Below, one piece after another: positions 43,425 to 59,152 of a DNA stretch of 64,000 nt (position 1 is its first letter; each line of letters starts with the position of its first letter). The notes under the pieces are model-generated. The model saw only the letters and a program-made list of their open reading frames with translations, did not search any database and was not told the DNA's origin. This DNA is from an uncultured cyanobacterium (lineage in GTDB: Bacteria > Cyanobacteriota > Cyanobacteriia > Cyanobacteriales > Cyanobacteriaceae), in contig CAVVOP010000008.1 of NCBI GenBank assembly GCA_963749915.1, forward strand, positions 320,001-384,000. Direction: 5' to 3'. The translations under genes were made by a program, and so were the position numbers.

Positions 43425-44087
43425 TTGATATATAATTTAGTTTTTAAATTTAAACCGATCATGAAAAGCATTTTTAAATTAACAACTCTGATTCTCGTTA
43501 CTCCTTCTTTATTTACCTTCATCTTTCCTGACAACGCTCAAGCTAACCAATTTGACGTTTGTCTCAAGCAATTAACCGCCAGCGGGGTTGACGTGGAAGA
43601 AGCTCAAACCGGTTGTGCAGATGCCTTAGTGCCTAGGGAATTATCGACTTGTGTGCGTACTATTAGTAATAACACAGAGATAACAGCCATCGATGCTCTT
43701 AAAAGTTGCTATCAGGTAAGAAGACCAGTAGATATGGGTAATTGTGTGGTTAGTATTAACAAGAATAGCATTTTAACCCTCGCAACTAAAAGTAATATGG
43801 AGAAAAAAGAAACAGAAGCGACAACAACTAATATGGAGAAAAAAGAAACAGAAGCGACAACAGAAACTAGTCAATTTGCTGCCACCGACGAGAATACCTT
43901 AATAACTAAAGTATCCCCCGTGATGATGGCATTAAACACCTGCCAAGCGAGTCTTTTACCTGCTAGACATTCTGAATGTGTAATCGCTTTATCTCGTACT
44001 CCACAAGTAACCGATCCCACCAAAGCAATGGAAACCTGTTTAAGTGCGGAAGATTTCCCTAGAGATTTATTTCCTTCTTACCAATAG
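43425..44087 (+). CDS. exported Cys-rich hypothetical protein
   Basis: signal peptide from ATG 43461; repeated C...RP.E/D...CV motif; internal 36-nt duplication. Confidence 0.75.
   Translation: MIYNLVFKFKPIMKSIFKLTTLILVTPSLFTFIFPDNAQANQFDVCLKQLTASGVDVEEAQTGCADALVPRELSTCVRTISNNTEITAIDALKSCYQVRRPVDMGNCVVSINKNSILTLATKSNMEKKETEATTTNMEKKETEATTETSQFAATDENTLITKVSPVMMALNTCQASLLPARHSECVIALSRTPQVTDPTKAMETCLSAEDFPRDLFPSYQ
43793..43862 (+). repeat. in-frame 36-nt tandem duplication (NMEKKETEATT x2)
   Basis: TAATATGGAGAAAAAAGAAACAGAAGCGACAACA is identical at 43793 and 43829. Confidence 0.95.
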
Positions 44088-44306
44088 TTAAGGAAGAGGA
44101 AATGGGAAACGGGGAATGGTCAAAATAAATAATTGATAGTTTCTGCATAGGACTTATTTATTTTGATTACCGGTTTTAGTATTCCCTCTCTGCTGAAAAC
44201 GGAGAAAACTTGAACAATTATTCATTAGACCTCTCCAAGAATTACCAAAAACAGGGGTGAAACTATAATGATTTCGTTAATAAATTAGAGTTTCTGGAGA
44301 TTTCTA

Positions 44307-44531
44307 TTATTCTTCGTCCCACTTTTTAACTACAATTATATCACTTACAGGATCTTGCATCGAAAAGCCGAAAGCTAATAATTCTGATTTGAGAAACTTC
44401 CAATCGTCCCCAAATAATAAGGCAATTTTACCGATATTATCATGGGGTTGAATAATTTGTGAATTGACGAGAGAAGATACTTTTTGTTGCAATTTCACCA
44501 TGGGGTGAAGCACTTGCTGCTTATTCCGCAT
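44307..44531 (-). CDS. DUF4327-family protein
   Basis: HPMVKLQ..V.SLV.S.II.P.D.I.KIALLFGD.W. Confidence 0.75.
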   Translation of the reverse strand: MRNKQQVLHPMVKLQQKVSSLVNSQIIQPHDNIGKIALLFGDDWKFLKSELLAFGFSMQDPVSDIIVVKKWDEE

Positions 44532-44750
44532 AAAGTTTTTTACTGTTACTAATACTGTTATAATGATTGTTGGTTAATTATTGGCTTAAGCCTTTACGAG
44601 AATAGCCTTTTATTTGCTGATTCTTATAAATCTCGTGATTAATACTTTGTAGCCAACATGGATGATAAGCAAATTTGAGTAGAAAATTATTGCTTATGAA
44701 TAGTCTATCACATCATAACATATTTTGCTAAGATTTTTTTTTAAAACTCC

Positions 44751-44866
44751 TAAGCCTTTAACGGTAAACTATCAACTATCAACGATTAAAGATGACTTAT
44801 TCTCCTAATTCTCAAGATATTCAAACCCTTTTTAATGACATTGTCATTAAGATTATCAAAAGGTAG
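44751..44866 (+). pseudogene. duplicated 5' fragment of menG/ubiE (left island boundary)
   Basis: 44792-44843 matches 57074-57125 at 46/52 nt (MTYSPNSQDIQTLFNDI vs MSSSPNSQDIQTLFNDI); upstream TAAGCCTTT..ACG..TCAACTATCAAC also shared; frame stops at 44864-44866. Confidence 0.88.
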
Positions 44867-44907
44867 AATATTTAAGATAAGAACAGCACTTCAAAAAATT
44901 TAAACCC

Positions 44908-46089
44908 ATGCCAGAGAATAAACAGCCAGGAAAATACGATGCGGTAATAAAAAGAGTACCTCAAGCTCCTATGTATGGGGCGGTTATAGGAGGAATACAA
45001 GGGGTTAAACGAAGGTTTGAGTCGGCAAAGGATGTAAATTTAAAAGCAGAAATCCTGCAAGAAGCCTTACAGTACGAAAATCAAGGAATAGAGTTTATCT
45101 TACAGGTAGTTCAAGCTACTAATGAACAAGAAATCTTAGCGGTAGCCTATGATTTACTAAAGGAGAAACAAGAGTCAACAATTCAGAATGTATTATTAAC
45201 TCTGAAAAGAAAACATCCTTGGTTAGATTTACCTCAGTTTAGTTTCGACACAGTGAAGGTAAACCGTAAAGGAGAAATCATTAAACGAGAACAAAAAACC
45301 GCCCGTTACTACCGAGAAGATTTAGGAAAGGGTATTAATCTGGATATGGTTTATATTCAAGGTGGTACATTTATGATGGGAAGTCCAGACGGAGAAGGCA
45401 ATGACAGTGATGAAAAACCGCAACATCAGGTGACAGTATCATCATTTTTTATGGCTAAATATCCCGTAACTCAAGCCCAGTGGAAAGCCGTAGCATCATT
45501 ACCTAAAATTGAGAGAGACTTAAAATTAGATCCTTCTCGGTTTAAAGGAGATAATCGCCCTGTAGAAAAAGTTAACCGGTATGATGCCGTAGAATTCTGT
45601 CACCGTTTATCAAAACTAACAGGGAGAGAATACACCCTACCCAGTGAAGCTAAGTGGGAATATAGTTGTCGGGCGGGAACAACCACAACCTTTAACTGTG
45701 GTGAAACCATTACCACTGATTTAGCCAACTATAACGGTACAGATGAATATTACGGCAGTTATGCTGATGAACCGAAAGGGCAGTATAGGCAAGGAACAAC
45801 CTCTGTAGGCTCATTTCCTGCTAATGATTGGGGATTATCGGATATGCACGGCAACGTTTGGGAATGGTGTGCAGATGAATGGCATGGTAATTATAACAAT
45901 GCCCCTACAGATGGTAATGTGTGGACTGGGGGAGAAAGTAATCGTTGTGTAATGCGTGGTGGTTCATGGTTCTACAGCCCGAATAACTGCCGTTGTGCTA
46001 ACCGTCTCAACGACAACCGTGATTGCGACTACTACTGCAACAACGGCAACGGTTTTCGTGTTATGTCTATTTTCGGGAGGACTTCATAG
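44908..46089 (+). CDS. FGE-sulfatase/C-type-lectin-fold protein, DGR target 1
   Basis: MVYIQGGTFMMGS, EKPQH.V, YPVTQAQW, LPSEAKWEYSCRAGT, DMHGNVWEWC, RGGSW...R......NGFRV; AAC/NNC-rich variable 3' end; followed by avd. Confidence 0.9.
   Translation: MPENKQPGKYDAVIKRVPQAPMYGAVIGGIQGVKRRFESAKDVNLKAEILQEALQYENQGIEFILQVVQATNEQEILAVAYDLLKEKQESTIQNVLLTLKRKHPWLDLPQFSFDTVKVNRKGEIIKREQKTARYYREDLGKGINLDMVYIQGGTFMMGSPDGEGNDSDEKPQHQVTVSSFFMAKYPVTQAQWKAVASLPKIERDLKLDPSRFKGDNRPVEKVNRYDAVEFCHRLSKLTGREYTLPSEAKWEYSCRAGTTTTFNCGETITTDLANYNGTDEYYGSYADEPKGQYRQGTTSVGSFPANDWGLSDMHGNVWEWCADEWHGNYNNAPTDGNVWTGGESNRCVMRGGSWFYSPNNCRCANRLNDNRDCDYYCNNGNGFRVMSIFGRTS
45949..46089 (+). repeat. DGR variable region VR1 with IMH-like 3' end
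   Basis: differs from VR2 almost only at codon positions 1-2 of NNC/NNT codons; 3' GGTTTTCGTGTTATGTCTATTTTCGGGAGGACTTCATAG is identical in both. Confidence 0.8.
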
Positions 46090-46185
46090 CCCTTTGTTCT
46101 TTGTCCCTCTTGCCCTTTGTCTTGTATTTCTTTCTTTCTTTCTTTCTTTCTTTCTGTATTTTTTGTAGTTAGTCATGAGAATTTT

Positions 46186-46497
46186 ATGAAAGAATTATCC
46201 GTAATTCAAAAGACCTATGATTTGATAAAATGGTATGTACCAATAATTGAGAGACTACCAAAAACCCATAAGTTTACTATCGGAGATCGAATCATTAATA
46301 ATTTGTACGATTTATTAGAAGAATTAATTAAAGCAAAATATGCCCAAGAAAAACTAACTAGGTTGGAATCCTTAAATAATGTTTTAGACATATTACGGTA
46401 TCAAACAAGATTATTACTGGATTTTGAATTAATCTCTTTAAAACGTTATGAGTATGTTTGTCAACTGTTTCAAGAAATAGGCATAGAAATTGAATAA
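46186..46497 (+). CDS. avd: DGR accessory variability determinant Avd, apparently C-terminally truncated
   Basis: MKELSVIQKTYDLIKWYVP...LPK.HKFTIGDRI...LY.LLE.LI.AKY, LDILRYQTRLL; ends EIGIEIE* without the usual GGW.K end; start placed at ATG 46186. Confidence 0.85.
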   Translation: MKELSVIQKTYDLIKWYVPIIERLPKTHKFTIGDRIINNLYDLLEELIKAKYAQEKLTRLESLNNVLDILRYQTRLLLDFELISLKRYEYVCQLFQEIGIEIE

Positions 46498-46568
46498 ATA
46501 AATGACTAAAATATGGTCACTACAAAATATAATATTGATGAGAGCAAAAGTAAATAGTAATTAAAACT

Positions 46569-48221
46569 ATGGCAGAAAATGGGAAGCAACCGGGAAAATA
46601 TGATGCCGTTATCACCAATAACCCCCACCAGAAATTAATCGAATCCTTAGATTTAAAATTACGCGCTCGTTATCCCTTACTCTACATCGTTGCCGTAGAA
46701 GAAGAACCAGTGGAACAAATTTTAGCCCAAGTAGCCTATCAATCGCAACCCCAACGAGAATTATTAATGTGGGATATTGTCAACGGTTGGAATGATAACA
46801 GTAAAGACAAAAACGCTGTTATGGGGGCATTGATGCGTATTAGTCAAACTGACGGCAATAAACCCTGTATATTTGTCCTCAAAGATTTAAACTTTATCCT
46901 CAAACAACCTGATAGTGCCAGTAACGCTCCCGTCATCAGGGCTTTAAAGAATTTAGGCAAAGAGCTTAAATATCGCCGTCAAACCTTGATTATAACTGGT
47001 CATACTGCGGTTGTACCTACGGACTTATCGGAAGAAATCACCGTCATTGACTTTCCCCTTCCTGAGATGACCGAAATAGATTACTTAATTAGAGAGTTAG
47101 TAGTACCAGAAAAACTGAACCTCAGTGGTTTAGGCAAAGAGCAATTAGTGAAAGCCTGTCTAGGATTGAGTCGTACCCGTATCCGTAGGGTTTTAGCTTC
47201 CGCCCTCGCCGCTAAACAGGAGGTAAATGAGGGTGATATTGACATTGTTTTAGAAGAGAAAAAACAAGCCATCCGTCAAACGGGTATCCTTGAGTTTTAT
47301 TCCTCCCATGAATCCTTGAAAAGTGTCGGCGGTTTGGATAGACTCAAACAGTGGTTACAAATCAAAAAGGATAGTTTTACCGAAAAAGCCCGTAAATATG
47401 GCATTCCTAACCCGAAAGGCTTATTTTTAGTCGGTATTCAAGGTACAGGAAAATCTTTATCGGCTAAAACCATCGCTAATGAATGGCGTTTACCCATGCT
47501 ACGGTTAGATACAGGACGATTATTTGGGGGCATTGTCGGCGAAAGTGAAAGTAAAACCCGTCAAATGATTCAATTAGCAGAAGCCATTTCACCCTGCGTA
47601 TTGTGGATGGATGAGATTGATAAAGCCTTTGGTAACATTTCAGGGGGCGGTGACGGAGATTCAGGCACATCTCGCCGTGTTTTTGGTACTTTAATTACTT
47701 GGATGCAGGAAAAAACTAGCCCTGTTTTCATCGTTGCCACCGCGAATAATGTGGAGATTTTACCCGCCGAATTACTGAGAAAAGGACGTTTTGACGAGAT
47801 ATTTTTCATTAACTTACCTAACCATCGAGAGCGCATGGAAATCTTTAAAGTTCATTTACAACGGTTACGCCCTCAACGACTCAGGGATTTTGACTTAAAA
47901 GAATTAGCTACTGCCACAGAAGAATTTAGTGGTGCAGAAATTGAGCAAGTTATTATTGATGCCATGAGTTTCGCCTTTGCCGATGAAAGTGCAGAAGCAA
48001 GGGATTTTACTAATACAGATATATTAACCGCCTGTGGTGATACCGTACCATTGGCAAGGGTAGCCACCAAACAGATTGAAGAGTTAAAACAATGGGCAGT
48101 GAAAACAGGTGCTAAAACTGCTTCTAAGGATATTGAATTAGAAAAGGAATTAGAAACTTATCGCCAACAAAAGGGCATTCGCCAGAGTCAATATCTCGAT
48201 GTAGATCCTCCCCAAAGTTAA
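46569..48221 (+). CDS. Ycf46-like AAA+ ATPase with N-terminal KQPGKYDAVI leader
   Basis: degenerate N-terminal ATPase domain (IFVLKD), Walker A GIQGTGKS, Walker B LWMDEIDK, VATAN, LLRKGRFDE. Confidence 0.9.
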   Translation: MAENGKQPGKYDAVITNNPHQKLIESLDLKLRARYPLLYIVAVEEEPVEQILAQVAYQSQPQRELLMWDIVNGWNDNSKDKNAVMGALMRISQTDGNKPCIFVLKDLNFILKQPDSASNAPVIRALKNLGKELKYRRQTLIITGHTAVVPTDLSEEITVIDFPLPEMTEIDYLIRELVVPEKLNLSGLGKEQLVKACLGLSRTRIRRVLASALAAKQEVNEGDIDIVLEEKKQAIRQTGILEFYSSHESLKSVGGLDRLKQWLQIKKDSFTEKARKYGIPNPKGLFLVGIQGTGKSLSAKTIANEWRLPMLRLDTGRLFGGIVGESESKTRQMIQLAEAISPCVLWMDEIDKAFGNISGGGDGDSGTSRRVFGTLITWMQEKTSPVFIVATANNVEILPAELLRKGRFDEIFFINLPNHRERMEIFKVHLQRLRPQRLRDFDLKELATATEEFSGAEIEQVIIDAMSFAFADESAEARDFTNTDILTACGDTVPLARVATKQIEELKQWAVKTGAKTASKDIELEKELETYRQQKGIRQSQYLDVDPPQS

Positions 48222-48278
48222 AGTGCTAAAATTGAATTATCGTAGAGATTTCCTTTACATGCAAATAAATATTTTAGT

Positions 48279-48767
48279 TTATTCTCCCGCTTGTTCAATG
48301 GCACAATCTATAAGATTTTGACTTAAATAAATATGAGACTTTTTCATGTTATCGATACAGTTACGGATAGAAATATTATATCCTTTCTGTTTGGCTTTCA
48401 GAAGTATGCCGAGGCAACCCGTAAGAGAAAGTCCATTGAGTCTTGCTATTCTTCTGCCTATGGCTTCATCAATGCAAACTGTCGTAATTTTTTTATCTAA
48501 GGCGAGTTGAATTACGGAAGCCTCTCCCAAATCTAAGGAATTTAGTAAAAAGGGTGAAATCTGGAGAGGTGATGATTGTTTTTGTAAGTAAGTATCGCTA
48601 TTAAATGCAGAAATAGCAAAACCAATTTTACCCCCAGCTAATATTTCTTGACAGACTTCATAGGGTACTAAAACTTGTTTGTAAAGATAGCTCAAAATTT
48701 TTAAATCCCCCAATGCGGAAACTAAAGCTATTATGGGGGAAGTATTGATAACAATAGTGTTAGGCAT
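48279..48767 (-). CDS. PIN-domain toxin (DUF3368-like)
   Basis: IVINTSPIIAL, V.VP.EV..EI, LDLGEASVI.LA, IDE..GR..A...GL...G.LGIL. Confidence 0.85.
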   Translation of the reverse strand: MPNTIVINTSPIIALVSALGDLKILSYLYKQVLVPYEVCQEILAGGKIGFAISAFNSDTYLQKQSSPLQISPFLLNSLDLGEASVIQLALDKKITTVCIDEAIGRRIARLNGLSLTGCLGILLKAKQKGYNISIRNCIDNMKKSHIYLSQNLIDCAIEQAGE

Positions 48768-49011
48768 TGGCTAAGTCTGATAATAATTCTTCTGGGGTTA
48801 AGTCAATCATTGATACACCATAATCAGCTAGTTTGAGTAAAAATGTTACTCTATCAACTCCTAATAATATTCCCGCCATTCCTGATGAAATTCGTTTCAT
48901 TTCAAATAGTTTTACTACCATTGCCCATTTTGCTTCTTGTTCAAATTCTTGAGGTGTTTGATTTAAAGCGTCGGGAAAAGTTGACGGATATTCGATAGTT
49001 ATTTGTGCCAT
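48760..49011 (-). CDS. UPF0175-family antitoxin
   Basis: VKLFEMKRISSGMAG.LLGVDRVTFL..L; overlaps the PIN toxin start. Confidence 0.85.
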   Translation of the reverse strand: MAQITIEYPSTFPDALNQTPQEFEQEAKWAMVVKLFEMKRISSGMAGILLGVDRVTFLLKLADYGVSMIDLTPEELLSDLANA

Positions 49012-49069
49012 CTGTCTTTAAATTTGATGTTTTTCACTCTATTTTACTCCCCTCACATCAATTTTACCT

Positions 49070-49292
49070 ATCGGCGGTAACAGACTTTTATAACGCATTG
49101 GGGCAATTTTTAAGTTATCGGTTGGTTTTAAGCCAAATTGAACCAAATAGAGCCTTATATTTAGCTATTCCTTTAGATACATATTTAGAGCTATTTGAAT
49201 CGGATTTTGGAGAATTGGTGATGAAAGAATATGAATTAAAATTAATTATCTATAATTCTAATAATGGAGATTTAACTCAATGGATAAATTAA
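49070..49292 (+). pseudogene. xisH: XisH C-terminal half
   Basis: SAVTDFYNALGQFLSYRLVL...EPNR.LYLAIP...Y...F...QWIN; N-terminal half missing; overlaps xisI start. Confidence 0.8.
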
Positions 49293-49615
49293 GCTTTTAT
49301 CGAGAAGCTATTAAGAGATTATTAATCGAATATACCGCATCGGAAAAATATGATGATGATTGCGAATCTCAATTAATTTTTGATGAAAAACAAGACCATT
49401 ATTTATGGTTAGAATTAGGTTGGGATGACTATAAAAGAATTTATTATACTGTAATTCACTTTGATATTAAAGATGGTAAGATATGGTTACAGCAAAATGC
49501 CACTGACTTAAACCCTGCGGAGGATTTAATTGAATTAGGAGTCAACCGAGAGGATATTATTTTAGGTTTACAACCCCCTTATAAACGCCCCTATACTAAT
49601 TATGGAGTGGCTTAA
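49280..49615 (+). CDS. xisI: XisI family protein
   Basis: MDKL..YR..I, QLIFD...DHY, GW, IHFDIKDGKIWLQ.N.T, DIILG.QPP..R.YT.YGVA. Confidence 0.9.
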   Translation: MDKLSFYREAIKRLLIEYTASEKYDDDCESQLIFDEKQDHYLWLELGWDDYKRIYYTVIHFDIKDGKIWLQQNATDLNPAEDLIELGVNREDIILGLQPPYKRPYTNYGVA

Positions 49616-49648
49616 CCATTCATTACTAAATTATTTATCGGATCAACT

Positions 49649-50022
49649 ATGTCACATTTTACTACTATCAAAGTTCAAATCAAAAACGGCGAGATTTTAC
49701 ATAAAACCTTACAAGAGTTGGGTTATACCGTCGAAACTAATACCAACGTCAGAGGCTATCAAGGCATAAAAACCGAAGCTGAATATGTCATTCGTCAAAA
49801 TAATGGTTATGATTTAGGCTTCCGCCGTCAAGGGGATAATTATGAGTTAGTGGCGGACTTTTGGGGTGCTAAAATTGACCAGACTAATTTATTAATGACA
49901 TCTCTCAGAAATATGCTCATTATACTTTGATGGAAGAGGTGGAAAAGCAAGGTTTTAATATCGAAGAAGAGCAAACTTTGGAAGACGGCACTTTGCGGTT
50001 AGTCGTAGGTAGATGGGTTTAA
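49649..50022 (+). pseudogene. DUF1257 (Ycf35-like) protein, frameshifted
   Basis: MSHFTTIKVQI...YDLGF...YELVADFW; adding one T near 49888-49890 restores FINDISQKYAH...GF.IEEEQTLEDGTLRLVVGRWV*. Confidence 0.8.
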
Positions 50023-50245
50023 CTCAGTTGGAAATAAAGTTATTGATGGAGATAAGTAACAAAAGTAATAAGTAATAAGTAATGGGTAATGAGTCTTTCA
50101 ACTTGTCCTCGGTGTCTCGTCTTCACCATTTTTCTTCTATCGAACTGAGCTAACCGAGCAGTATTGGGAGATGTCTAATATAATTTATTCTAAATTCGAG
50201 AATGTTGTCTTTAGTTATAAGTATCTTTACAATCTTCTTCGCATA

Positions 50246-50277
50246 AAGCCCATCGCCTTTAGGCATGGGAATGTCAA
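50246..50277 (+). mobile_element. IS200/IS605-family end hairpin remnant
   Basis: AAGCCCATCGCCTTTAGGCATGGGAATGTCAA: imperfect hairpin ending in TCAA, typical of IS605-group right ends. Confidence 0.6.
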
Positions 50278-50330
50278 GCCTAATTGTGATATGATCTTGG
50301 TTTAGGACTTAATTAAAAGATAATTTTTGT

Positions 50331-50562
50331 ATGTCGGCAAAAGATAAGTTTCACCAAGCCGTAAAAAATGCTTTAATCAAGGAACAATGGAAAATTACCC
50401 ATGATCCTTTATTATTGACTTTGACAATGCCCGATTCAAATTGATTTAGGGGCAGAGTCTTTGATAGCGGCGGAGAAATCTTCTCGTAAAATTGCCGTTG
50501 AAGTCAAAAGTTTCCTTGGTAATTCAACTGTCTATGAGTTTCATTTAGCCGTAGGGCAATAA
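50331..50562 (+). pseudogene. xisH: XisH N-terminal half, frameshifted
   Basis: MSAKDKFHQAVKNALIKEQWKITHDPL / QIDLGAESLIAAEK...KIAVEVKSFL....VYEFHLAVGQ* across two -1 shifts. Confidence 0.85.
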
Positions 50563-50618
50563 AAAACCATAGATTATAATATAATTCTAAATTAAAAATA
50601 AATGAAACACTAACGCCC

Positions 50619-51737
50619 ATGCCAGAGAATAAACAGCCAGAGAAATACGATGCGGTGATAAAAAGAGTACCTCAAGCTCCTATGTATGGGGCGGTTATAG
50701 GTGGAATACAAGGGGTTAAACGAAGTTTTGAGTCGGCACAGGATGTTAATTTAAAAGCAGAAATCCTCCGAGAAGCGTTACAGTACGAAAATCAAGGAAT
50801 CGAGTTTATTCTACAAGTATTAGAATCACAGGATTTTGAGTTACAGTGGAAAGCCTATGAGATACTAAAGAATAGACCTGAAACTCAAATCAAGGCAAAA
50901 TTCGATAATTGTTTGCCTGTCTTCAGTTTCGACACAGTGAAGGTAAACCGTAAAGGAGAAGTAATTAAACGAGAACAAAAAACCGCCCGTTACTACCGAG
51001 AAGATTTAGGAAAGGGTATTAATCTGGATATGGTTTATATTCAAGGTGGTACATTTATGATGGGAAGTCCACACGGAGAAGGTTATAGTGATGAAAAACC
51101 GCAACATCGGGTGACAGTACCATCATTCTTTATGGCTAAATACCCCGTCACTCAAGCCCAGTGGAAAGCCGTAGCATCTGAGAGAAACTTAGAATTAAAT
51201 CCTTCTGAGTTTAAAGGAGATAATCGCCCTGTGGAAATGGTTAACTGGTATGATGCGGTAGAATTCTGTCACCGTTTATCAAAACTAACAGGGAGAGAAT
51301 ACACCCTACCCAGTGAAGCCAAGTGGGAATATAGTTGTCGGGCGGGAACAACCACAGCCTTTAACTGTGGTGAAACCATTACCACTGATTTAGCCAACTA
51401 TGACGGTACAGATGAATATTACGGCAGTTATGCTGATGAACCGAAAGGGGAGTATAGGGAAGGAACAACCCCTGTAGGGTCATTTCCTGCTAATGATTGG
51501 GGATTATATGATATGCACGGTAACGTCTGGGAATGGTGTGCAGATGAATGGCATGAAGATTATAACAATGCCCCTACAGATGGTAATGTGTGGACTGGAG
51601 GAGAAAGTAATTGTAGTGTAATGCGTGGTGGTTCATGGCACGACGGGCCGAGTGGCTGCCGTTGTGCTAGCCGTCTCAGCTACGACCCCTACAACTACGG
51701 TTTTCGTGTTATGTCTATTTTCGGGAGGACTTCATAG
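50619..51737 (+). CDS. FGE-sulfatase/C-type-lectin-fold protein, DGR target 2
   Basis: near-identical paralogue of 44908-46089 with a different linker and a different variable 3' end. Confidence 0.9.
   Translation: MPENKQPEKYDAVIKRVPQAPMYGAVIGGIQGVKRSFESAQDVNLKAEILREALQYENQGIEFILQVLESQDFELQWKAYEILKNRPETQIKAKFDNCLPVFSFDTVKVNRKGEVIKREQKTARYYREDLGKGINLDMVYIQGGTFMMGSPHGEGYSDEKPQHRVTVPSFFMAKYPVTQAQWKAVASERNLELNPSEFKGDNRPVEMVNWYDAVEFCHRLSKLTGREYTLPSEAKWEYSCRAGTTTAFNCGETITTDLANYDGTDEYYGSYADEPKGEYREGTTPVGSFPANDWGLYDMHGNVWEWCADEWHEDYNNAPTDGNVWTGGESNCSVMRGGSWHDGPSGCRCASRLSYDPYNYGFRVMSIFGRTS
51618..51737 (+). repeat. DGR variable region VR2
   Basis: aligns to VR1 with codon-position-1/2 substitutions; 21 nt shorter. 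Confidence 0.78.
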
Positions 51738-51814
51738 CCCTTTGTGCTTTGTCCCTCTTGCCCAATGTCTTGTATTTCTTTCTTTCTATCTTGTATTTTT
51801 TGTAGTTAGGGTTT

Positions 51815-51940
51815 GCCCCCTAAATCCCCCAATTCTGGGGGAAAGAACAATTGAACTCCCTCATATTTGGGGACTGGGGGGCTTATCCGAACAGTATTGG
51901 GAAAAATCCCCCTTACCAAGGGGGATTTAGGGGGATCAAA
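51815..51940. repeat. REP-like palindromic repeats
   Basis: CCCCCTAAATCCCCCAATTCTGGGGG and ATCCCCCTTACCAAGGGGGATTTAGGGGGAT; related sequence near 43368-43420. Confidence 0.7.
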
Positions 51941-52081
51941 GACTTTGAAAACAGGTTCTTAGGGTTTGAATTAGACAAATAATACTTATTAAATATGGTT
52001 TAGTAAATCAATTGTGATACAGTTTAAGTCAATTTTATTTCTTTTACTCTTAATTCTTTACTCTATCTTCATCAGTGAAAT

Positions 52082-53023
52082 CTATGATTGGTGCAAGATT
52101 TGAGTATGAGAATTTAACCAGTTAATTAAATCATCGAGACATTGAAAATCAAAAATAGCATCCCCTAAATCTTCAATTTGGCATAAGGATAAATCATTAA
52201 TTTGCCTTTCCAACTCAGGAGAAAACTCCCCGAAACGTTTTTTAATTTGACGCTTAACGAGATTTTGTTCACCTTGGTGTAACCCACGCTGTAAGCCGAT
52301 TTCAATGCCTTCTTCCATCCAACTGGTGACAATTTTCATAATTTGTTCTTCCTCTGCTAATCCTATTTGTTTTAATTCGGTTTCAAATTCTTGGGTTTCC
52401 GTTAGATTTAATTTTAAATAAGTATCCACAAATCCTGAAATTAACTCTATTCTAGCGGGATCTAAACTTAAAGTAGCTAACATTCTCAGACATTCTAATT
52501 TTACCTTAGCTCTTTCCTCTGATTTAAAGTCCATTTTTGCCATTAAAGCGGCGGCGATAGGATTGGGTTGATTTAAAAATTGTCGCCAATTAAGTCGATT
52601 TAACTGGATAGTCGTGTAGTTAAATTCGAGGATTTTTTTATCAGGAAATGTAACTAAATATTAATTTGTTTCCTCTCGTTTTGGCTTATCATAGGAAAAG
52701 ATAACTACAGGATAAATTGGTAAACGATATTTAGCATCTAAACGAGCAAAATAATGAAACATTCGCCGTTCAAATTCGCTCTGATTATAGGCTTGATTTT
52801 CAATATGGATGAGGAAAAAACGGTTTTCTTCTTGCCATTTTACTTGGGCGAGTAAGTCGATTTTTCGTTTATCTCCTGCGGTTACATCGATAAAAACTTC
52901 TTCAGGTAAAAAAGTTAAACTATCTTTTGATATATATTGTAAAATATCGGGAATAAATAATTCAATAAATTCCCAGAAAAATGTCTGGATTAATTCTTTA
53001 AAAAGACGGTCATGATCTATCAT
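52082..53023 (-). pseudogene. Rpn/YhgA-like (DUF4351 C-terminus) putative nuclease split by an in-frame TAA
   Basis: DHDRLFKELI.TFF.EF, IDLL, LIHIENQ; the same frame continues after TAA 52661-52663 (YLVTFPDKKILEFNY...NPIAAALMAKM) to a DUF4351-like end. Confidence 0.85.
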
Positions 53024-53126
53024 ATTTGTTCATAACTTATAGGTTGATGATTTTTAGTAATAATAATATCTTTCCCTTTAAAAGAAGTATAATTAAAAAT
53101 GTATAAAATCAAAAACAAAGTCACCC

Positions 53127-53339
53127 ATGGCTGAATATCAACGAATAGAGTACCAAATCGGCAAAGACGGTAAAATCACAGAAAGGGTAATTGATGCCAG
53201 TGGTAATAGTTGTCTGCAACCTACCCAAGCATTAGAAGAAGCATTAGGAGAAATAGAATCAAGGGAATTACTCCCTGAATATTACGAAGGAGAAGAAAAC
53301 TTAACCACCGATAATATTCAACGATCGAAATCATTGTAA
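53127..53339 (+). CDS. DUF2997-family protein
   Basis: IEY.IGKDGKITE.V..ASG.SC...T..LEEALG.I..RE..PEYY; usual partner of DUF1257 and Ycf46-like ATPase. Confidence 0.8.
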   Translation: MAEYQRIEYQIGKDGKITERVIDASGNSCLQPTQALEEALGEIESRELLPEYYEGEENLTTDNIQRSKSL

Positions 53340-53403
53340 GCTAGTTCACATCTCAATACTGCTTGGTTAGTCGCTCAAGTTATTTTGTCCGCCCCCTAAA
53401 TCC

Positions 53404-53510
53404 CTGACAAGGGTAGGTTTTTTACATTTGGGTTGAGACAAGACAAGGAAGGAACGAAGGACAGCAGACAAGGGAGATAGTAGAAACGAAAAATGGTCTT
53501 TTTAGCCATT
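53404..53510 (+). mobile_element. isolated IS end (same TIR as 8038)
   Basis: CTGACAAGGGTAGGTTTTTTACA is identical to 8038-8060 and is followed by GACAAGG repeats. Confidence 0.75.
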
Positions 53511-53554
53511 TATGTATTATTTGTAACAAAATGTTTCTTAAACGATTCCCCTCT

Positions 53555-54126
53555 TCCCAATACTGCTCGGTTAGTGGTAAAAACGTTACGGTGAGGTTAA
53601 AGTAATGAGTAATAAGTAATGAGTAATAAGTAATCAGTAATAAGTAATGAGTAATAAGTAATGAGTAATAAGTAAATATTTATTGTTTATAGAGACAGAA
53701 GATTTTGCTATCAGAATTATTAAAGCTTATTCCGAACTGAACAAAAGGAACTTTGATGATGCAGCTAAAGTTTTATCAAAACAATTTTTAAGAAGTGGGA
53801 CATCAATTGGGGCTAATTGTTCAGAAGCAAAATATGCACAGTCGAAGAAGGATTTATTAACAAATATTCTATAGCTTTAAAAGCAGCAAATGAGACCCTT
53901 TATTGGATAAAAATAATGATTAAATCAGAGCTAGTATCACAATCTAAATTTCAAAAAATGATAGAAGAGAATGAAAGAATTATTAAAATATTAATGAGTT
54001 CAATCAATAAATTAAAAGAAAAACAATCTAGTTAAATTTTTATTCATTACTCATTACTCATTACTCATTACTCATTACTTCATCTTCACAGTAAGATTTT
54101 CGGGCAAATCCCTCGCAGTATTGGGA
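53555..54126 (+). mobile_element. TIR-bounded cassette carrying a four-helix-bundle gene between inverted heptamer arrays
   Basis: 12-bp TIR TCCCAATACTGC/GCAGTATTGGGA; (AGTAATR)x10 at 53601-53675 and (CATTACT)x5 at 54045-54079. Confidence 0.8.
53683..54035 (+). pseudogene. four-helix-bundle protein (23S rRNA IVP family), frameshifted
   Basis: FAIRIIK...LSKQFLRSGTSIGAN.SEA..AQSKKD / FINKYSIALK.ANET.YW; one T missing near 53853. Confidence 0.85.
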
Positions 54127-54757
54127 CGCAACCACCAAGACACCGCAGAACAAGCCAACGCCGAACCAGCCACACAACGGAAAGAAACCACGGGAACAAA
54201 CCCCCAACGAAAGAACAGCTTCTTTTCACCCGTTCTCATTTTTCACCGTGAACTTTGATCTGTGCGCAAGGCAAAAATAAATAAATGGAGCGTAGCCGTT
54301 ACGAAGACTATAACTAAGTACAACTAAACTATGGCGGCGGAGCGACTTCAATTAAGGTGTTGCCTAGTCGCACCACAGAACGGGTATACTAGAAAAGCGG
54401 TCGTTCATTATCCCCACAGTTCCAGCCACGCAGTGACCTAGGGTCGGAAACAGTAGCCTTTGAGATAAACCGAAGGCAAAAAGACTATGTTTTTAACTGT
54501 ATTTCAATCTAAATATTAATATATATTAAGAAAAATTAACTAAAAAAATCTCTGATTAATTAAATCTTATTAAATGATTAGAATATGAGGAAAGTTCAGT
54601 ATATTTACTGTTGTTAGTAAATATAAAATTGGGAACTATAAGTCTATAGCAAACTAGATTTATACTCTGACTTATTACTCATTACTCATTACTCATTACT
54701 CATTACTCATTACTTCATCTTCACAGTAAGATTTTCGGGCAAATCCCTCGCAGTATT
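54044..54757 (+). repeat. perfect 79-bp direct repeat (54044-54122 and 54679-54757)
   Basis: T(CATTACT)x5 TCATCTTCACAGTAAGATTTTCGGGCAAATCCCTCGCAGTATT occurs twice. Confidence 0.92.
54075..54239 (-). pseudogene. possible adenine-free small ORF, truncated by the MITE arm
   Basis: MRTGEKK-LFFRWGFVPVVSFRCVAGSALACSAVSWWLRP-(MITE-derived NTARD...); codons 8-39 contain no A. Confidence 0.4.
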
Positions 54758-54828
54758 TATCTGCACTATTTTTAAGGTATTAAGGCTCAAATATTTTTAC
54801 AGTTTTTTAACATTAAATAGGATAAACA

Positions 54829-55395
54829 ATGGATTTTAATTATCTATTAACAAGCATATTTTTATGGCTAATAATTAGCCTTTTATTATTGACAGTTTTT
54901 GCTTCCTCATCACCTTCTAATCAAGGTAAATTTAAAGATTTTAAAGACAATAAATCTCAGGATTTAGATAACGATTCGGGTAAAGAAGAAATCATCGCCC
55001 TTCAACAACAATGCCAAAGATTAAGAGAGGAATTAGAAGCCCAATCTAACCAGTTAAAAGATGATTTTCGTAGTGACACTTTTGAACAATTACAGCCTTT
55101 ATTAACTAACTATCCCACCGCCCGTGAGATGGCAAAAGCTAAACCAGATTTACCCGCTAAAAATCTAGTATCTTTGTTCACATCCTTAGAAAACTTGTTA
55201 GAAAGTTGGGGTTATGAAACCATTGGCACACCGTGGGAAGAAGTTAATTATAATCCTCAAATTCATCAAGGTGACAGTGATGATATTGAAGTAGGGGAAT
55301 CGGTTTATATCCGTTTTGTAGGCTACCGTGACGGCGATAATATTCTTTATCCTGCGAAAGTAAGTCTCAATCTTCCTCCCAATTTAAAAAGTTAA
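54829..55395 (+). CDS. membrane-anchored GrpE-like nucleotide exchange factor
   Basis: N-terminal TM helix, coiled coil, C-terminal IG...V.YNPQIHQ...GY..GD.IL.PAKVS GrpE-type beta domain; directly upstream of Hsp70. Confidence 0.75.
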   Translation: MDFNYLLTSIFLWLIISLLLLTVFASSSPSNQGKFKDFKDNKSQDLDNDSGKEEIIALQQQCQRLREELEAQSNQLKDDFRSDTFEQLQPLLTNYPTAREMAKAKPDLPAKNLVSLFTSLENLLESWGYETIGTPWEEVNYNPQIHQGDSDDIEVGESVYIRFVGYRDGDNILYPAKVSLNLPPNLKS

Positions 55396-55429
55396 TTTCT
55401 AATTCCTAATTCCTAATTCCTAATTATTT

Positions 55430-57028
55430 ATGACTACTGTAGCGATTGATTTTGGCACAAGTAACACCGTTGTTAGTATTATCGAACCCGATACCAAACA
55501 AGCAAAATCCCTCCGTTTTGAGAAAATGTCGAGGGTATTTCGGATGAAACTTAATAACGGCTCAGTGTCAGAAATTCCCGTCATCCCTAGCTTAGTGTTT
55601 ATCAAAGAAGGACATGAATTAATATTAGGAGAACAAGTGCGCACTGGTCGGTTAGGATGTAGTAAGCCTGAACGATTTTTTAAAGCCTTTAAAAGAGATT
55701 TAGCCGCCGAATATCGCTCCCCTACGAAGATAATAGAAGGTAAAGAATACCCATCAGAAGCAGTAGCAGAAATATTTTTAAAAGAAATTTGGCAACAACT
55801 GAAATTACAACATTTAACTCCCTCTCAAGTAATATTTACCGTGCCAGTAGGAGGCTTTGAAAGTTACTCGAATTGGTGTCGTGACTTAGCCACAGGATTA
55901 GGCATTGAAAAAATCCAATTAGTCGATGAATCCACCGCCGCCGCCTTCGGTTATGCCGTTAAAAAGCCCGGTGCTTTAGTTTTAGTAGTGGACTTTGGAG
56001 GGGGTACATTAGACTTAAGTTTAGTGCGTACTGTCGGCACTTCCCCAAAATTAAAAGAATTAAAAGGAGAGGTTTTAGCGAAAACTCAAGCCTATGTGGG
56101 AGGAGAAGATATTGATATTTGGTTAATGGAAGATTACTTGCAAAAACAGGGTATTTCTAAAAACGATTTAAGTAGTGTTAGTTGGCAGAATTTATTAGAA
56201 ATAGCCGAGCGTCTTAAGATACAGTTATCCTTTAAAGAAGAAGCAAAGGAAAGTTGGTTAGATGAGGAAACCTTTACTTCCTATGATATTGCTTTAAATC
56301 GACCACAACTCAAAGAAATATTAGAAACTCAACAACTATTACCTCAATTACGGGATTGTCTCGATGAAGTTATTCAGATGTCAATGGGTAAGGGCATCAA
56401 TAAAAAACACATTGAGAAAGTAGTTTTAGTAGGCGGCAGTTGTTTAATTGCATCTGTAAGAGAATTAATTACTTCTTATTTTGGACCAGAAAAAGTCCTG
56501 ATCAATAAACCCTTTGAAGCGGTGTCTCAAGGGGCTTTAACTGTTGGTTTATTAGAAAACGTAGATGACCATTTATACCATAGCTACGCCCTTCGTACAT
56601 GGAATCCCTTGACTCAGGAAAATGATTATGATCCTTTATTTCCATCAGGCATACAATATCCCTGTGAATTAGAACATCCTTTAGTTCTTCAATGTGCCAA
56701 TAATGGACAAGATGCCATTTACCTTGATATTGGGCAAGTGGCAGAAATGGGAAAAGCGGAGTTAAGTTATGATGCTTCGGGTAAAATGACCAGTGGTATG
56801 GTTAAATCTAAAACTACTTACAAATCCCTCACCTATGAACTAGACTGGCAAGGAAATGTCGTCAAATCCGCTTGTATCGCTAAATTACATCCTCTTGGCA
56901 CTGTGGGAAAAGATCGTCTTAAACTGCATTTGGAAGTGGATGAGGGGCGAATGTTATTGACTACTGTTACGGATATTCTCACCCAACAAGTATTAGTCTA
57001 TAAGAAAGCGATCGCTCGCCTTGATTAA
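55430..57028 (+). CDS. atypical Hsp70-family protein
   Basis: AIDFGTSNT, TVPVGG, ESTAAA, VVDFGGGTLDLS, GGEDID, AERLKIQLS, VLVGGS; short divergent C-terminus without a lid. Confidence 0.9.
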   Translation: MTTVAIDFGTSNTVVSIIEPDTKQAKSLRFEKMSRVFRMKLNNGSVSEIPVIPSLVFIKEGHELILGEQVRTGRLGCSKPERFFKAFKRDLAAEYRSPTKIIEGKEYPSEAVAEIFLKEIWQQLKLQHLTPSQVIFTVPVGGFESYSNWCRDLATGLGIEKIQLVDESTAAAFGYAVKKPGALVLVVDFGGGTLDLSLVRTVGTSPKLKELKGEVLAKTQAYVGGEDIDIWLMEDYLQKQGISKNDLSSVSWQNLLEIAERLKIQLSFKEEAKESWLDEETFTSYDIALNRPQLKEILETQQLLPQLRDCLDEVIQMSMGKGINKKHIEKVVLVGGSCLIASVRELITSYFGPEKVLINKPFEAVSQGALTVGLLENVDDHLYHSYALRTWNPLTQENDYDPLFPSGIQYPCELEHPLVLQCANNGQDAIYLDIGQVAEMGKAELSYDASGKMTSGMVKSKTTYKSLTYELDWQGNVVKSACIAKLHPLGTVGKDRLKLHLEVDEGRMLLTTVTDILTQQVLVYKKAIARLD

Positions 57029-57073
57029 GCCTTTTACGATTAAATATTAATTGTCAACTATCAACTATTAAAA

Positions 57074-57775
57074 ATGAGCTCTTCTCCTAATTCCCAAGAT
57101 ATTCAAACTCTTTTTAATGATATTGCACCAGTTTATGATCAAATGAATGATTGGTTAAGTTTCCGTCTCCACCGTATTTGGAAGTTAATGACCGTAAAAT
57201 GGAGTAGTCCACAACCTTATGAAACTGCGTTAGATCTCTGTTGTGGTACTGGTGACTTAACTTTTTTAATGGCAAAACAACTCAAAAAAGGGAGAGTTAT
57301 TGGCGTTGATTTTTCCTCGCAGTTGTTGGCAGAGGCACAAAAAAAACAAAAATTTAAGTCTTTAAATAGTGAAATTCGGTGGTTAGAAGCAAATGTTTTA
57401 AGTTTGCCTTTTGACGATAATTCTTTTGATTGTGCCACTATGGGTTATGGGTTGAGAAATGTTACGGATATTTGTGCTTGTTTACAGGAAATTCAACGAG
57501 TTTTAAAACCTAATAGTAAAGTAGCTATTTTAGATTTTCATAAACCTACACAGGATTGGGTTGCCAATAGTCAAAAATGGTATTTAGATAACGTGGTAGT
57601 GAAAATTGCGGATTTTTTAGGCACTCAATCAGAATATGCTTATATTTATCCTAGTTTAGAGCGTTTTCCTAATGGCGAAACCCAAATTCAACTAGGTTTA
57701 AATGCTGGTTTTAGTGCGGGTATCCATTATCCTTTATTTGGTGGTACAATGGGAGTTTTAGTATTAACTAAATAG
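57074..57775 (+). CDS. menG: 2-phytyl-1,4-naphthoquinone/demethylmenaquinone methyltransferase
   Basis: F..IAPVYDQMND.LS...HRIWK, LDLCCGTGD, GVDFS, GYGLRNV, YAYI..S. Confidence 0.92.
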   Translation: MSSSPNSQDIQTLFNDIAPVYDQMNDWLSFRLHRIWKLMTVKWSSPQPYETALDLCCGTGDLTFLMAKQLKKGRVIGVDFSSQLLAEAQKKQKFKSLNSEIRWLEANVLSLPFDDNSFDCATMGYGLRNVTDICACLQEIQRVLKPNSKVAILDFHKPTQDWVANSQKWYLDNVVVKIADFLGTQSEYAYIYPSLERFPNGETQIQLGLNAGFSAGIHYPLFGGTMGVLVLTK

Positions 57776-57916
57776 AGGTAATTCAAACATTATTAAGCTG
57801 ATAAATTTGCTAAAAAAAGTTAGTTACTGTCGTGGTAATAAATCATTGACAAGAAAAAATTGATAATTCAATTACCTTAAAAAAAATATAAATTTAAGAT
57901 TAATTAGTTAGGGATA

Positions 57917-59152
57917 ATGCCGTTAGAATTTTATAATTGGTGGCAAATTGCGCTTCCCCCCGTAGCAGGTTCAGTTATTGGATATTTTACTAATGATTTA
58001 GCGATAAAAATGCTATTTCGTCCTTATAAACCTTTATATTTTTTCAACAAGCAATTACCTTTTACTCCAGGTTTAATTCCGAGAAATCAAAAGAGGTTGG
58101 CGAAAAGAGTTTCTGACACTATTATGAACTCTTTGTTAACCCCAGAAGAATTACAAAAATTGGCGAAAAGATTATTACAGACTGAACGAGTAGAGGGAGC
58201 AATTTTATGGTTACTACAGTTAACTTTACAGCAAATAAAAGAGGATAAAGAACAAAAGTCAGCAAAAATATTAGCGGATATTTTAAGAGATTTATTTGGG
58301 GATGCTTTACCGAAATTATTAAGAGTTTTAGCAAGAAAAGATGATTTTTTACAAAGTCAAATTGATCAGATCTTTGACCGCATTTTATTAGAGTTTAAGT
58401 TAACGGAAATTCAAGCTAGACAATTATCTGATTGGTTATTACAAGTTATTTTTGCACCGGATTTATTACGTCAAGCTTTAGTTAATTTTTTGACGGATCG
58501 AAATATTAGTGTGATTGATGAAGGTTTTAAGGAAAAAACAAGCGGTACTTATTGGGTTGTAGCGAATTTATTTGGGGTCAAAAATGCTTTAAGTCGTTTA
58601 CGGACTTTCTGTTTAGACGAGAAAGAAATGGCTAATACTCGCATTCAAGAGTTACTTTTATCTTTGGAAATTAGAAATAGATTAAAGGAATTTTTTTTGA
58701 ATTTTTCTTTACAAAATTTACCGGTAGCAACGGTTAAACAATTAAGACAAACCACTAATAAAGCTGTTCGGGATTATATTCAAGAAAAAGGTGCAGATTT
58801 TTTACATGAATTTGGTTTATCGATTGATTGGGATAAGGTATCAATTTTAATTGTTAATCGTTTACAAGCCTCTGATGTAGTTAATACTTCTTTAAGTTTA
58901 ATTAGTGAAGAATTGGCTTTAATTTTAGAGCGTTATTTAGAGGAAGATTTAGAAAAAATTGTCGCCCACGCTATCCCGATTTTATCCATTGATCAGGTTA
59001 TTATTGAAAGAATAAAAGCCACTACTCCTGAACATTTAGAAGAAGCAACTCAAAGTATTGTTAAAAGTGAGTTACAGGCGATCGTTAATTTAGGAGGAAT
59101 TTTAGGTTTAATTATTGGTTTAATTCAAAGTATTTTATTATTAATAACCTAA
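57917..59152 (+). CDS. DUF445 family membrane protein
   Basis: [38 protein letters not shown]. Confidence 0.88.

Follow-up and report, generated by a model that had tools for sequence, protein, structure and literature searches.

In the DnaK-GrpE system with its ClpB disaggregase, an Hsp70, an exchange factor and an AAA+ ATPase are combined. All4144 of Anabaena is presented as a helix-turn-helix (HTH)-GrpE protein in part of 10.1101/2025.04.14.648684, and passages of PMC4284462, PMC7496141 and 10.1101/2025.07.21.665879 place a module of Ycf46, Ycf35 (DUF1257) and DUF2997 in cyanobacteria and plastids; no mechanism is known for these three families, which cyanobacteria and many plastids retain. 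Passages of PMC7159879, PMC8195603 and 10.1101/2023.09.22.558884 further describe NTP-dependent conflict systems that use effector-associated domains, including VMAP/iSTAND MoxR-vWA ternary and FGS sensor systems. Here we analyze a 64,000-nt stretch of DNA (the window; contig CAVVOP010000008.1 of GenBank assembly GCA_963749915.1, positions 320,001 to 384,000) from an uncultured cyanobacterium (genome G000). It contains a gene cluster that an earlier interpretation of the letters alone, the sequence-only reading, took for a recognition or defence machine built from lectin-fold (CLec) proteins diversified by a diversity-generating retroelement (DGR), a Ycf46-like ATPase module and a GrpE-Hsp70 pair. 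Gene context in other genomes shows a constant core of a Ycf46-type ATPase (AAA-X), DUF1257, DUF2997, a membrane-anchored GrpE-like factor and a lidless Hsp70 (Hsp70-X), and the clustered genes are, in our judgement, very probably a real system rather than a chance accretion. The best overall explanation, to which we give roughly even odds (about 0.5), is that variable ligand-binding proteins sharing an N-terminal tag dock on a membrane-tethered Hsp70/AAA+ remodelling machine.

Loci were gathered around two anchors, the GrpE-like gene (best 80 of 338) and AAA-X (60 loci chosen by hand out of 117 matches, with regard to contig size and the spread over families). Beside the GrpE-like gene, DUF2997 occurred in 77 of the 80 loci and Hsp70 likewise in 77. 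All five core genes stood together in 35 loci, or 33 distinct ones once the duplicates L026 and L109 were dropped. Gene order and strand are mixed among the complete loci, with the AAA, GrpE-like and Hsp70 genes on one strand in 22 and compact operons in L143, L145, L146 and L148. Nostocaceae loci repeat, on one strand, the order NT-CLec, AAA, DUF1257, DUF2997, GrpE-like, Hsp70, where NT denotes a new N-terminal domain described below. An NT-CLec gene is present in 14 of the 33 complete loci, and its placement directly upstream of AAA-X is the usual Nostocaceae form. In the window, all eight backbone genes lie on the + strand in the order CLec, avd, AAA, DUF1257, CLec, DUF2997, GrpE-like, Hsp70-like, and this arrangement and the genes interspersed in it are as the sequence-only reading had described them. 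Metagenomes gave a similar picture: 27 Hsp70-X loci included the GrpE-like gene in 18 cases, DUF2997 in 14 and NT in eight, against zero, one and zero in 53 control loci, of like length, of a general lidless paralog. In several Nostocaceae loci (L031:7515-9220, L106:11870-13575), an inserted AAA_21/SMC-like ATPase gene and a small partner gene separate DUF2997 from the GrpE-like gene. A HEPN-like gene precedes AAA-X in L036 and L108.

Phyletic distribution was scored in 401 genomes of the class, among which kin are not independent, with only three candidates per genome scored for the ATPase and Hsp70. AAA-X was detected in 111 genomes, NT in 120, Hsp70-X in 112 and the GrpE-like clade in 93. 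The first three occurred jointly in 104 genomes and were all missing from 274, leaving 23 mixed. For AAA-X and NT, 109 genomes had both, two AAA-X alone, 11 NT alone and 279 neither; for AAA-X and Hsp70-X, the corresponding numbers were 105, six, seven and 283. Two of five rechecked NT-only genomes contain a split AAA-X. The GrpE-like profile fits less well (77 genomes in common with AAA-X, 34 and 16 alone), in part because the gene has diverged in genus g50 and in part because it can persist by itself. Lone GrpE-like orthologs were seen in genomes of family f1 (L210-L214); G001 and G008 also lack Hsp70-X. Within the window's own genus, AAA-X and NT are present in three of seven genomes and both absent from four. 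Family tallies for AAA-X, NT and Hsp70-X run in parallel: 5, 6 and 4 of 18 genomes in f7; 16, 17 and 17 of 45 in f39; 5, 7 and 7 of 40 in f41; and 2, 2 and 2 of 7 in f40. Chance accretion of unrelated modules at an insertion hotspot would suit the amount of debris in the island and the avd gene, which is peculiar to the window copy, but given the 33 complete loci, the phyletic match and the paralog control we regard it as extremely unlikely. It is refuted for the core and holds only for avd and the inserted genes. The finding that the sequence-only reading had named as fatal, modules that never co-occur in other genomes, is the opposite of what these loci and profiles show.

AAA-X has one intact set of Walker A, Walker B and arginine finger, located in its C-terminal half; this Walker A is the only one, and a profile comparison of the two halves was not significant (E=0.57). 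Judged by comparison with p97 and FtsH, the pore-loop position carries no aromatic residue. The Ycf46-family feature, an AAA protein of ~500-550 aa with DUF1257/DUF2997 neighbours, is present. AAA matches in 41 relatives separated into a near clade (61-84% identity, full-length E <1e-217) and near-universal paralogs (~52% and ~43%), and the AAA-X cut-off of E <=1e-170 was placed in the gap between them. A quick tree, short of a full search, separated the AAA-X clade from the genome's other Ycf46 paralogs (Shimodaira-Hasegawa-like approximate likelihood ratio test, 98). No plasmid AAA-X above 60% identity was found.

Models were predicted for DUF1257 and Hsp70-X. The DUF1257 model (predicted local distance difference test (pLDDT) score of 90) yielded no Foldseek match at E <=0.001. 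Its best solved-structure match was to KA1 domains (Z 6.1, root-mean-square deviation 3.4 over 77 residues), a common arrangement, and two unnamed viral models match it. Tandem pairs of different DUF1257 paralogs adjoin AAA-X in L050, L110, L113 and L163. DUF1257 and DUF2997 also occur in 40 and 35, respectively, of 41 phage-like viral contigs (L229-L269), which gave no AAA-X match; such pairs are possibly phage mimics or modulators of the host Ycf46 machine. The GrpE-like protein begins with a hydrophobic segment (hydropathy 2.62 for the window protein; 75 of 80 orthologs reach 1.8 or more), and some orthologs carry an HTH. It is a putative exchange factor for this Hsp70, with a sub-threshold Pfam match and adjacency to Hsp70-X in 77 of 80 loci. 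In the Hsp70-X model (pLDDT 83), the C terminus is all-strand, ending in strands at residue 530 of 532, and the helical lid is absent from the predicted structure. Its top Foldseek matches are DnaK proteins (E=1e-33, ~20% identity).

The variable proteins have in common approximately their first 95 residues, the NT domain, which consists of a D-A-V-L/I peptide and one HEAT-like pair. The motif contains one invariant Asp (consensus QPxxYDAVLGGQ), followed by a second AVLGG motif and the HEAT-like pair. NT has no Pfam match and is not a catalogued effector-associated domain. In the PDB, only HEAT/alphaRep repeats look like NT, and in the Atlas only unnamed cyanobacterial clusters do. In G005, G006, G020 and G039, the slots of the window's CLec genes are occupied by pentapeptide, LRV, WD40 or GUN4-like proteins with the same NT. 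Among 57 further NT proteins, we counted 19 FGE/CLec, 13 WD40, nine GUN4-like, six pentapeptide and two receiver proteins and eight without a Pfam match, two of which match the STM4015 family. The best 150 library-wide NT matches, 42 of them scanned with Pfam and the rest classed by local BLAST, added TPR and CBM96 fusions. At E <=1e-10, NT comprised 979 clusters, a count that includes some generic HEAT proteins, and genomes encode from one to a dozen tagged binders. The constant part of the variable proteins is, thus, NT and not the lectin, CLec being one of many interchangeable C-terminal domains. One locus (L113:7235-14116) has, beside AAA-X and DUF1257, an STM4011-STM4015 radical-SAM/ATP-grasp cluster in which STM4015-family proteins are fused to NT; similar gene sets appear in L163 and L221.

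The leading peptide of NT, with the pattern P-x-x-Y-D-A-V-L/I-G (the tag), is also found outside the binders. In G000, it lies within 14 residues of a Met in exactly three open reading frames (ORFs), those of both CLec proteins and AAA-X. The tags of the first CLec protein and AAA-X have ten identical residues, seven of the ten codons differ synonymously and the DNA upstream shows no evident likeness, which together point to selection on the peptide and not to a recent DNA copy. Since the tag is present on seven of 42 AAA-X proteins and, without the HEAT pair, on five other proteins, it is a separable linear module. A double-glycine leader was considered as an explanation and set aside, the first GG being absent in the window's lineage.

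These observations bear on two alternatives to docking. In the first, tagged repeat proteins would be clients that are folded, activated or turned over by a private Hsp70/AAA+ pair and then act elsewhere. This client-specific folding or recycling draws on the same co-occurrence and tag evidence, on the predicted lidless Hsp70, which may suit a short exposed peptide, and on the lack of a catalytic effector fused to NT among the proteins scanned. We consider it unlikely, however, as the ATPase itself is tagged in several lineages and similar repeat and CLec proteins of G000 do without NT (two NT matches versus about ten CLec-like matches). In the second, AAA-X would read the tag as a signal for export or loading. 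Cargo of contractile injection systems is loaded by AAA ATPases, a distant Ycf46-like gene sits among VgrG and baseplate genes on a Treponema plasmid, and the GrpE-like protein has a membrane anchor. Yet the cyanobacterial loci with listed neighbours showed no recognisable injection or secretion gene, and receiver and GUN4-like domains are cytoplasmic, making an export role very unlikely. The Treponema locus (L270:8363-12587; NC_015386.1) encodes a 4Fe-4S protein together with the Ycf46-like AAA.

The sequence-only reading had made the DGR and its accessory gene avd a core part of the system, and this part of it is not supported. Where AAC codons undergo DGR mutagenesis, their third-position C is left in place. 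Third-position C is found in 19 of 27 variable-region codons versus 40 of 251 in the gene body of NT-CLec 1 (Fisher p=7e-9), and in 13 of 20 versus 41 of 237 in NT-CLec 2 (Fisher p=1e-5). Both window genes display the DGR-target feature, a C-terminal CLec domain with AAC-derived variable codons. Compared to the intact Avd encoded by the complete DGR of this genome, the window avd is 62% identical, aligns over 102 of the 114 residues and ends 12 early; avd adjoins one of the 80 GrpE-anchored loci and none of the 60 AAA-anchored ones. No reverse transcriptase was detected in the window, the PF00078 matches lying at C1, C10, C12, C23 and C8:888k. A cognate template was not found in the 34-contig assembly, where 15-21 non-A differences separate the window tails from the C1 and C23 templates, compared to one to four in control template-variable pairs. 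Either the window's CLec genes were targets in the past or their template is not in the assembly. In the same genome, we noted a complete DGR at C1:19909-24850, a broken reverse transcriptase with an intact template at C23:1-2920 and a remote target at C21:764167, an insertion sequence-flanked DGR-type reverse transcriptase without a full template at C8:888069-889223, and an internally deleted NT-CLec-avd copy at C5:190088-190510 that retains the same start context, the variable-region tail and an avd fragment.

Elsewhere, 19 NT-CLec tails were compared to a template from G250. Six fit ungapped or nearly so (<=5 non-A differences, <=6 gaps) and one further tail fits with six gaps; the remaining tails, including those of the window, do not. 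The best Nostocaceae fits were L047, with 15 changes at A and two elsewhere, and L106, with 19 and two. No same-genome template for an NT-CLec tail was found in G200, whose own template has 14 non-A differences, or among the pattern matches in G432-G435; overall, tails fit best to a template from another genome. In the window, the link to a DGR is a secondary one, with CLec as one plug-in and the DGR part a relic in the window copy; what stands of the earlier interpretation is the co-occurrence of its modules.

The cluster lies in a 12.3-kb insertion (~44758 to 57040) flanked by a duplicated menG 5' end (Table 1). Upstream of the left repeat, the spacer can be aligned at 75-78% with the one between DUF4327 and menG in G001 and G004, and DUF4327 adjoins menG directly in G001, G003, G004 and G006. 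No integrase was seen among the island ORFs. In G005 and G006, the same cluster occupies another site (AAA 83-84%, DUF2997 96% and Hsp70 85-86% identity), showing that it has moved within the genus. Both genomes encode intact 124-aa DUF1257 orthologs (89-95% identity), and the frameshift in the window gene is either real decay or an assembly error. Further signs of decay are the avd shortened by 12 residues and the split Rpn and IVP genes. In this island, a conserved cyanobacterial system is present as a copy that has been relocated and has partly decayed. The gene identities given in the sequence-only reading were correct, whereas the truncation of avd by 12 residues, the DUF1257 frameshift and the menG repeat had been missed or overstated.

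Table 1. Features of the island and its boundaries (window coordinates).
Feature	Position	Strand	Remarks
Left direct repeat, remnant menG 5' end (island boundary)	44758..44843	+	72/86 nt identical to 57040-57125
NT-CLec 1	44908..46089	+	PF03781 E=1e-52; NT (~44908-45198) profile E=1.4e-29; variable region ~45952-46089
avd, C-terminally truncated relic	46186..46497	+	NF033474, 122 bits
AAA-X, Ycf46-type AAA+ ATPase with N-terminal tag	46569..48221	+	PF00004 and AAA_lid_3; CDC48/PAN/FtsH-type models
DUF3368/UPF0175 pair (inserted)	48279..49011	-	95-96% identical copies in G006 cluster
Partial xisH and xisI (inserted)	49005..49615	+	
DUF1257 (Ycf35-like), frameshifted near 49890	49649..50022	+	ORF stop at 49930, C-terminal part in another frame
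NT-CLec 2, paralog of NT-CLec 1 with different variable region	50619..51737	+	79% identical to NT-CLec 1 at the protein level
Split Rpn/DUF4351 gene (inserted debris)	52082..53023	-	
DUF2997	53127..53339	+	PF11211
Frameshifted four-helix-bundle (IVP) gene between heptamer repeats (debris)	53683..54035	+	
GrpE-like protein with N-terminal hydrophobic segment	54829..55395	+	PF01025 E=0.0018, below cut-off
Hsp70-X, nucleotide-binding domain and beta-sandwich substrate domain	55430..57028	+	Phosphate-loop and catalytic motifs present
Right direct repeat, start of intact menG (57074-57775)	57040..57125	+	

Gaps of 1.4-1.5 kb containing opposite-strand or broken genes split the backbone, which makes a single transcript across the window copy doubtful. 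The DUF3368/UPF0175 pair among the inserted genes is one that we take to be toxin-antitoxin-like. A second, broken xisH remnant, recognised from translation, lies at 50330-50560 just upstream of NT-CLec 2. Positions 54125-54500 hold a GC-richer repeat with 95-98% identical copies on C8 and C23; two copies lie near an ORF that, judging from its translation, is probably integrase-like. This repeat was ruled out as a DGR template: copies on C8, C23 and C13 mark it as a dispersed element. No Rfam match was obtained within 44000-58000, and promoter and terminator scans remained at shuffle level (47 versus 42.7 and 9 versus 9.4, respectively). Contigs of public sequencing runs contain near-identical pieces of AAA-X, Hsp70-X and the flanks.

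In the mechanism that we favour, the tag would serve as a docking peptide, read by the beta-domain of Hsp70-X or by an AAA-X/DUF1257/DUF2997 assembly, and would bring a binder, with the ligand it has captured, to a remodelling machine that is driven by ATP and kept at a membrane by the GrpE anchor. There, the target might be unfolded, disassembled or sequestered, while tags on some AAA-X proteins could dock the ATPase at the same site. Docking through the tag seems to us slightly better than an even bet, and a surveillance or defence role somewhat short of one. The latter is suggested by binder turnover, the DGR signature and the domain vocabulary in common with the conflict systems of Kaur et al.; turnover together with repeated DGR mutagenesis of the CLec type would fit recognition of changing foreign molecules.

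Several observations weigh against this picture. The genes are scattered in many lineages, with Hsp70-X within ~10 kb in nine and NT in 16 of the 60 AAA-anchored loci; the tag is missing from 35 of 42 AAA-X proteins; and GrpE-like orthologs persist alone in G001, G003, G008, G010 and G018. Loci next to the system supplied the seeds of the NT and Hsp70 profiles, and genomes that are kin do not count as independent. In the window copy itself, both DUF1257 and avd are broken. Among the proteins scanned, no nuclease, TIR, caspase or kinase domain is fused to NT, and PADLOC 2.0 returned only partial IetA, TRIP13 and PDC-M61B matches over generic shared ATPase domains. The apparently lineage-wide presence in some families (19 of 19 genomes in f28, 42 of 46 in f29) fits housekeeping better than defence, and the surveillance role is weakened by the missing effectors and by this retention.

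A further alternative is a stress or metabolic signalling hub that would be a specialised paralog of the stress-induced ycf46 operon, with GUN4-like, receiver and repeat domains reporting the cell's own state. The slr0373-0374-0376 operon responds to many stresses in the passages of PMC7496141 concerned, and the Synpcc7942_0416-0418 operon tracks growth arrest in those of 10.1101/2025.07.21.665879. The system is near-universal in families f23, f27, f28 and f29, and receiver and GUN4-like domains are fused to NT. Conversely, binder types vary within one genus (pentapeptide in G005 and G006, CLec in the window), a DGR signature is seen in CLec tails, and the cluster occurs patchily in f1, f7, f39 and f41, besides having changed its site within the genus. 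We judge such a hub distinctly unlikely. The docking of tagged binders could be taken further, to a receptor platform addressed by a peptide tag, in which an N-terminal address on any binding domain, including DGR-hypermutated lectins, would deliver ligand to a membrane-tethered Hsp70/Ycf46 unfoldase by a substrate-adaptor logic analogous to that of p97 cofactors. This proposal is tentative and falls well short of even odds; if true, it would constitute an adaptable surveillance system without toxic effectors and assign Ycf46 and Ycf35 a biochemical role.

The AAA-X branch gives the Ycf46 family two named partners, an Hsp70 without a lid and a GrpE-like factor at the membrane, and with them a tag of 15 residues. 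The system, present in about a quarter of the sampled cyanobacterial genomes, defines the unannotated domain NT and supplies context for a class of cyanobacterial DGR targets. It is apparently undescribed: no description was found in the literature searched, supplements being outside its scope, and loci of this kind could be among those listed in the source data on gene neighbourhoods behind PMC7159879 and PMC8195603.

Compared to known systems, the defining features of an active DGR cassette, a MoxR-vWA ternary system and a canonical DnaK are lacking. As in the cyanobacterial DGRs with remote CLec targets described in parts of Vallota-Eastman et al. 2020 (PMC7517822), we found a C-terminal CLec variable region, dispersed paralogs and remnants without reverse transcriptase; unlike those DGRs, no reverse transcriptase or template was found here, and AAA, Hsp70 and HEAT have zero occurrences in the main text of that paper. 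Like DnaK-GrpE with ClpB, the locus joins an Hsp70, an exchange-factor-like partner and an AAA+ ATPase, but it has no lid, no J-protein in the island, a membrane-anchored GrpE-like partner and a non-Clp ATPase. The HTH on some GrpE-like orthologs recalls All4144 as characterized in the part of 10.1101/2025.04.14.648684 noted above. With the Ycf46 module, it has the same three families in common, as far as the passages of PMC4284462, PMC7496141 and 10.1101/2025.07.21.665879 describe them. AAA-X, however, forms a clade separate from the near-universal Ycf46 paralogs (~50% identity or less; 111 of 401 genomes), and its ties to a chaperone pair and tagged binders are absent from those passages. 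The conflict systems, as presented in the passages cited at the outset, differ in that the ATPase here is a Ycf46-type classical AAA, neither MoxR nor STAND. No vWA match was obtained among the island proteins scanned, the core has DUF1257, DUF2997, GrpE-like and Hsp70 proteins with no catalytic effector found, and Ycf46, DUF1257 and DUF2997 have zero occurrences in the main text of PMC7159879. The common module here is a linear tag with a HEAT pair, comparable to a shared adaptor by analogy only. The described conflict systems and the present one both have a constant NTPase core, equip core and variable proteins alike with a shared N-terminal module, draw on one domain vocabulary (FGS/CLec, GUN4, pentapeptide, HEAT, TPR, propeller and lone receiver) and include CLec as a DGR target. 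The resemblance to an adaptor-and-NTPase conflict system is one of layout only.

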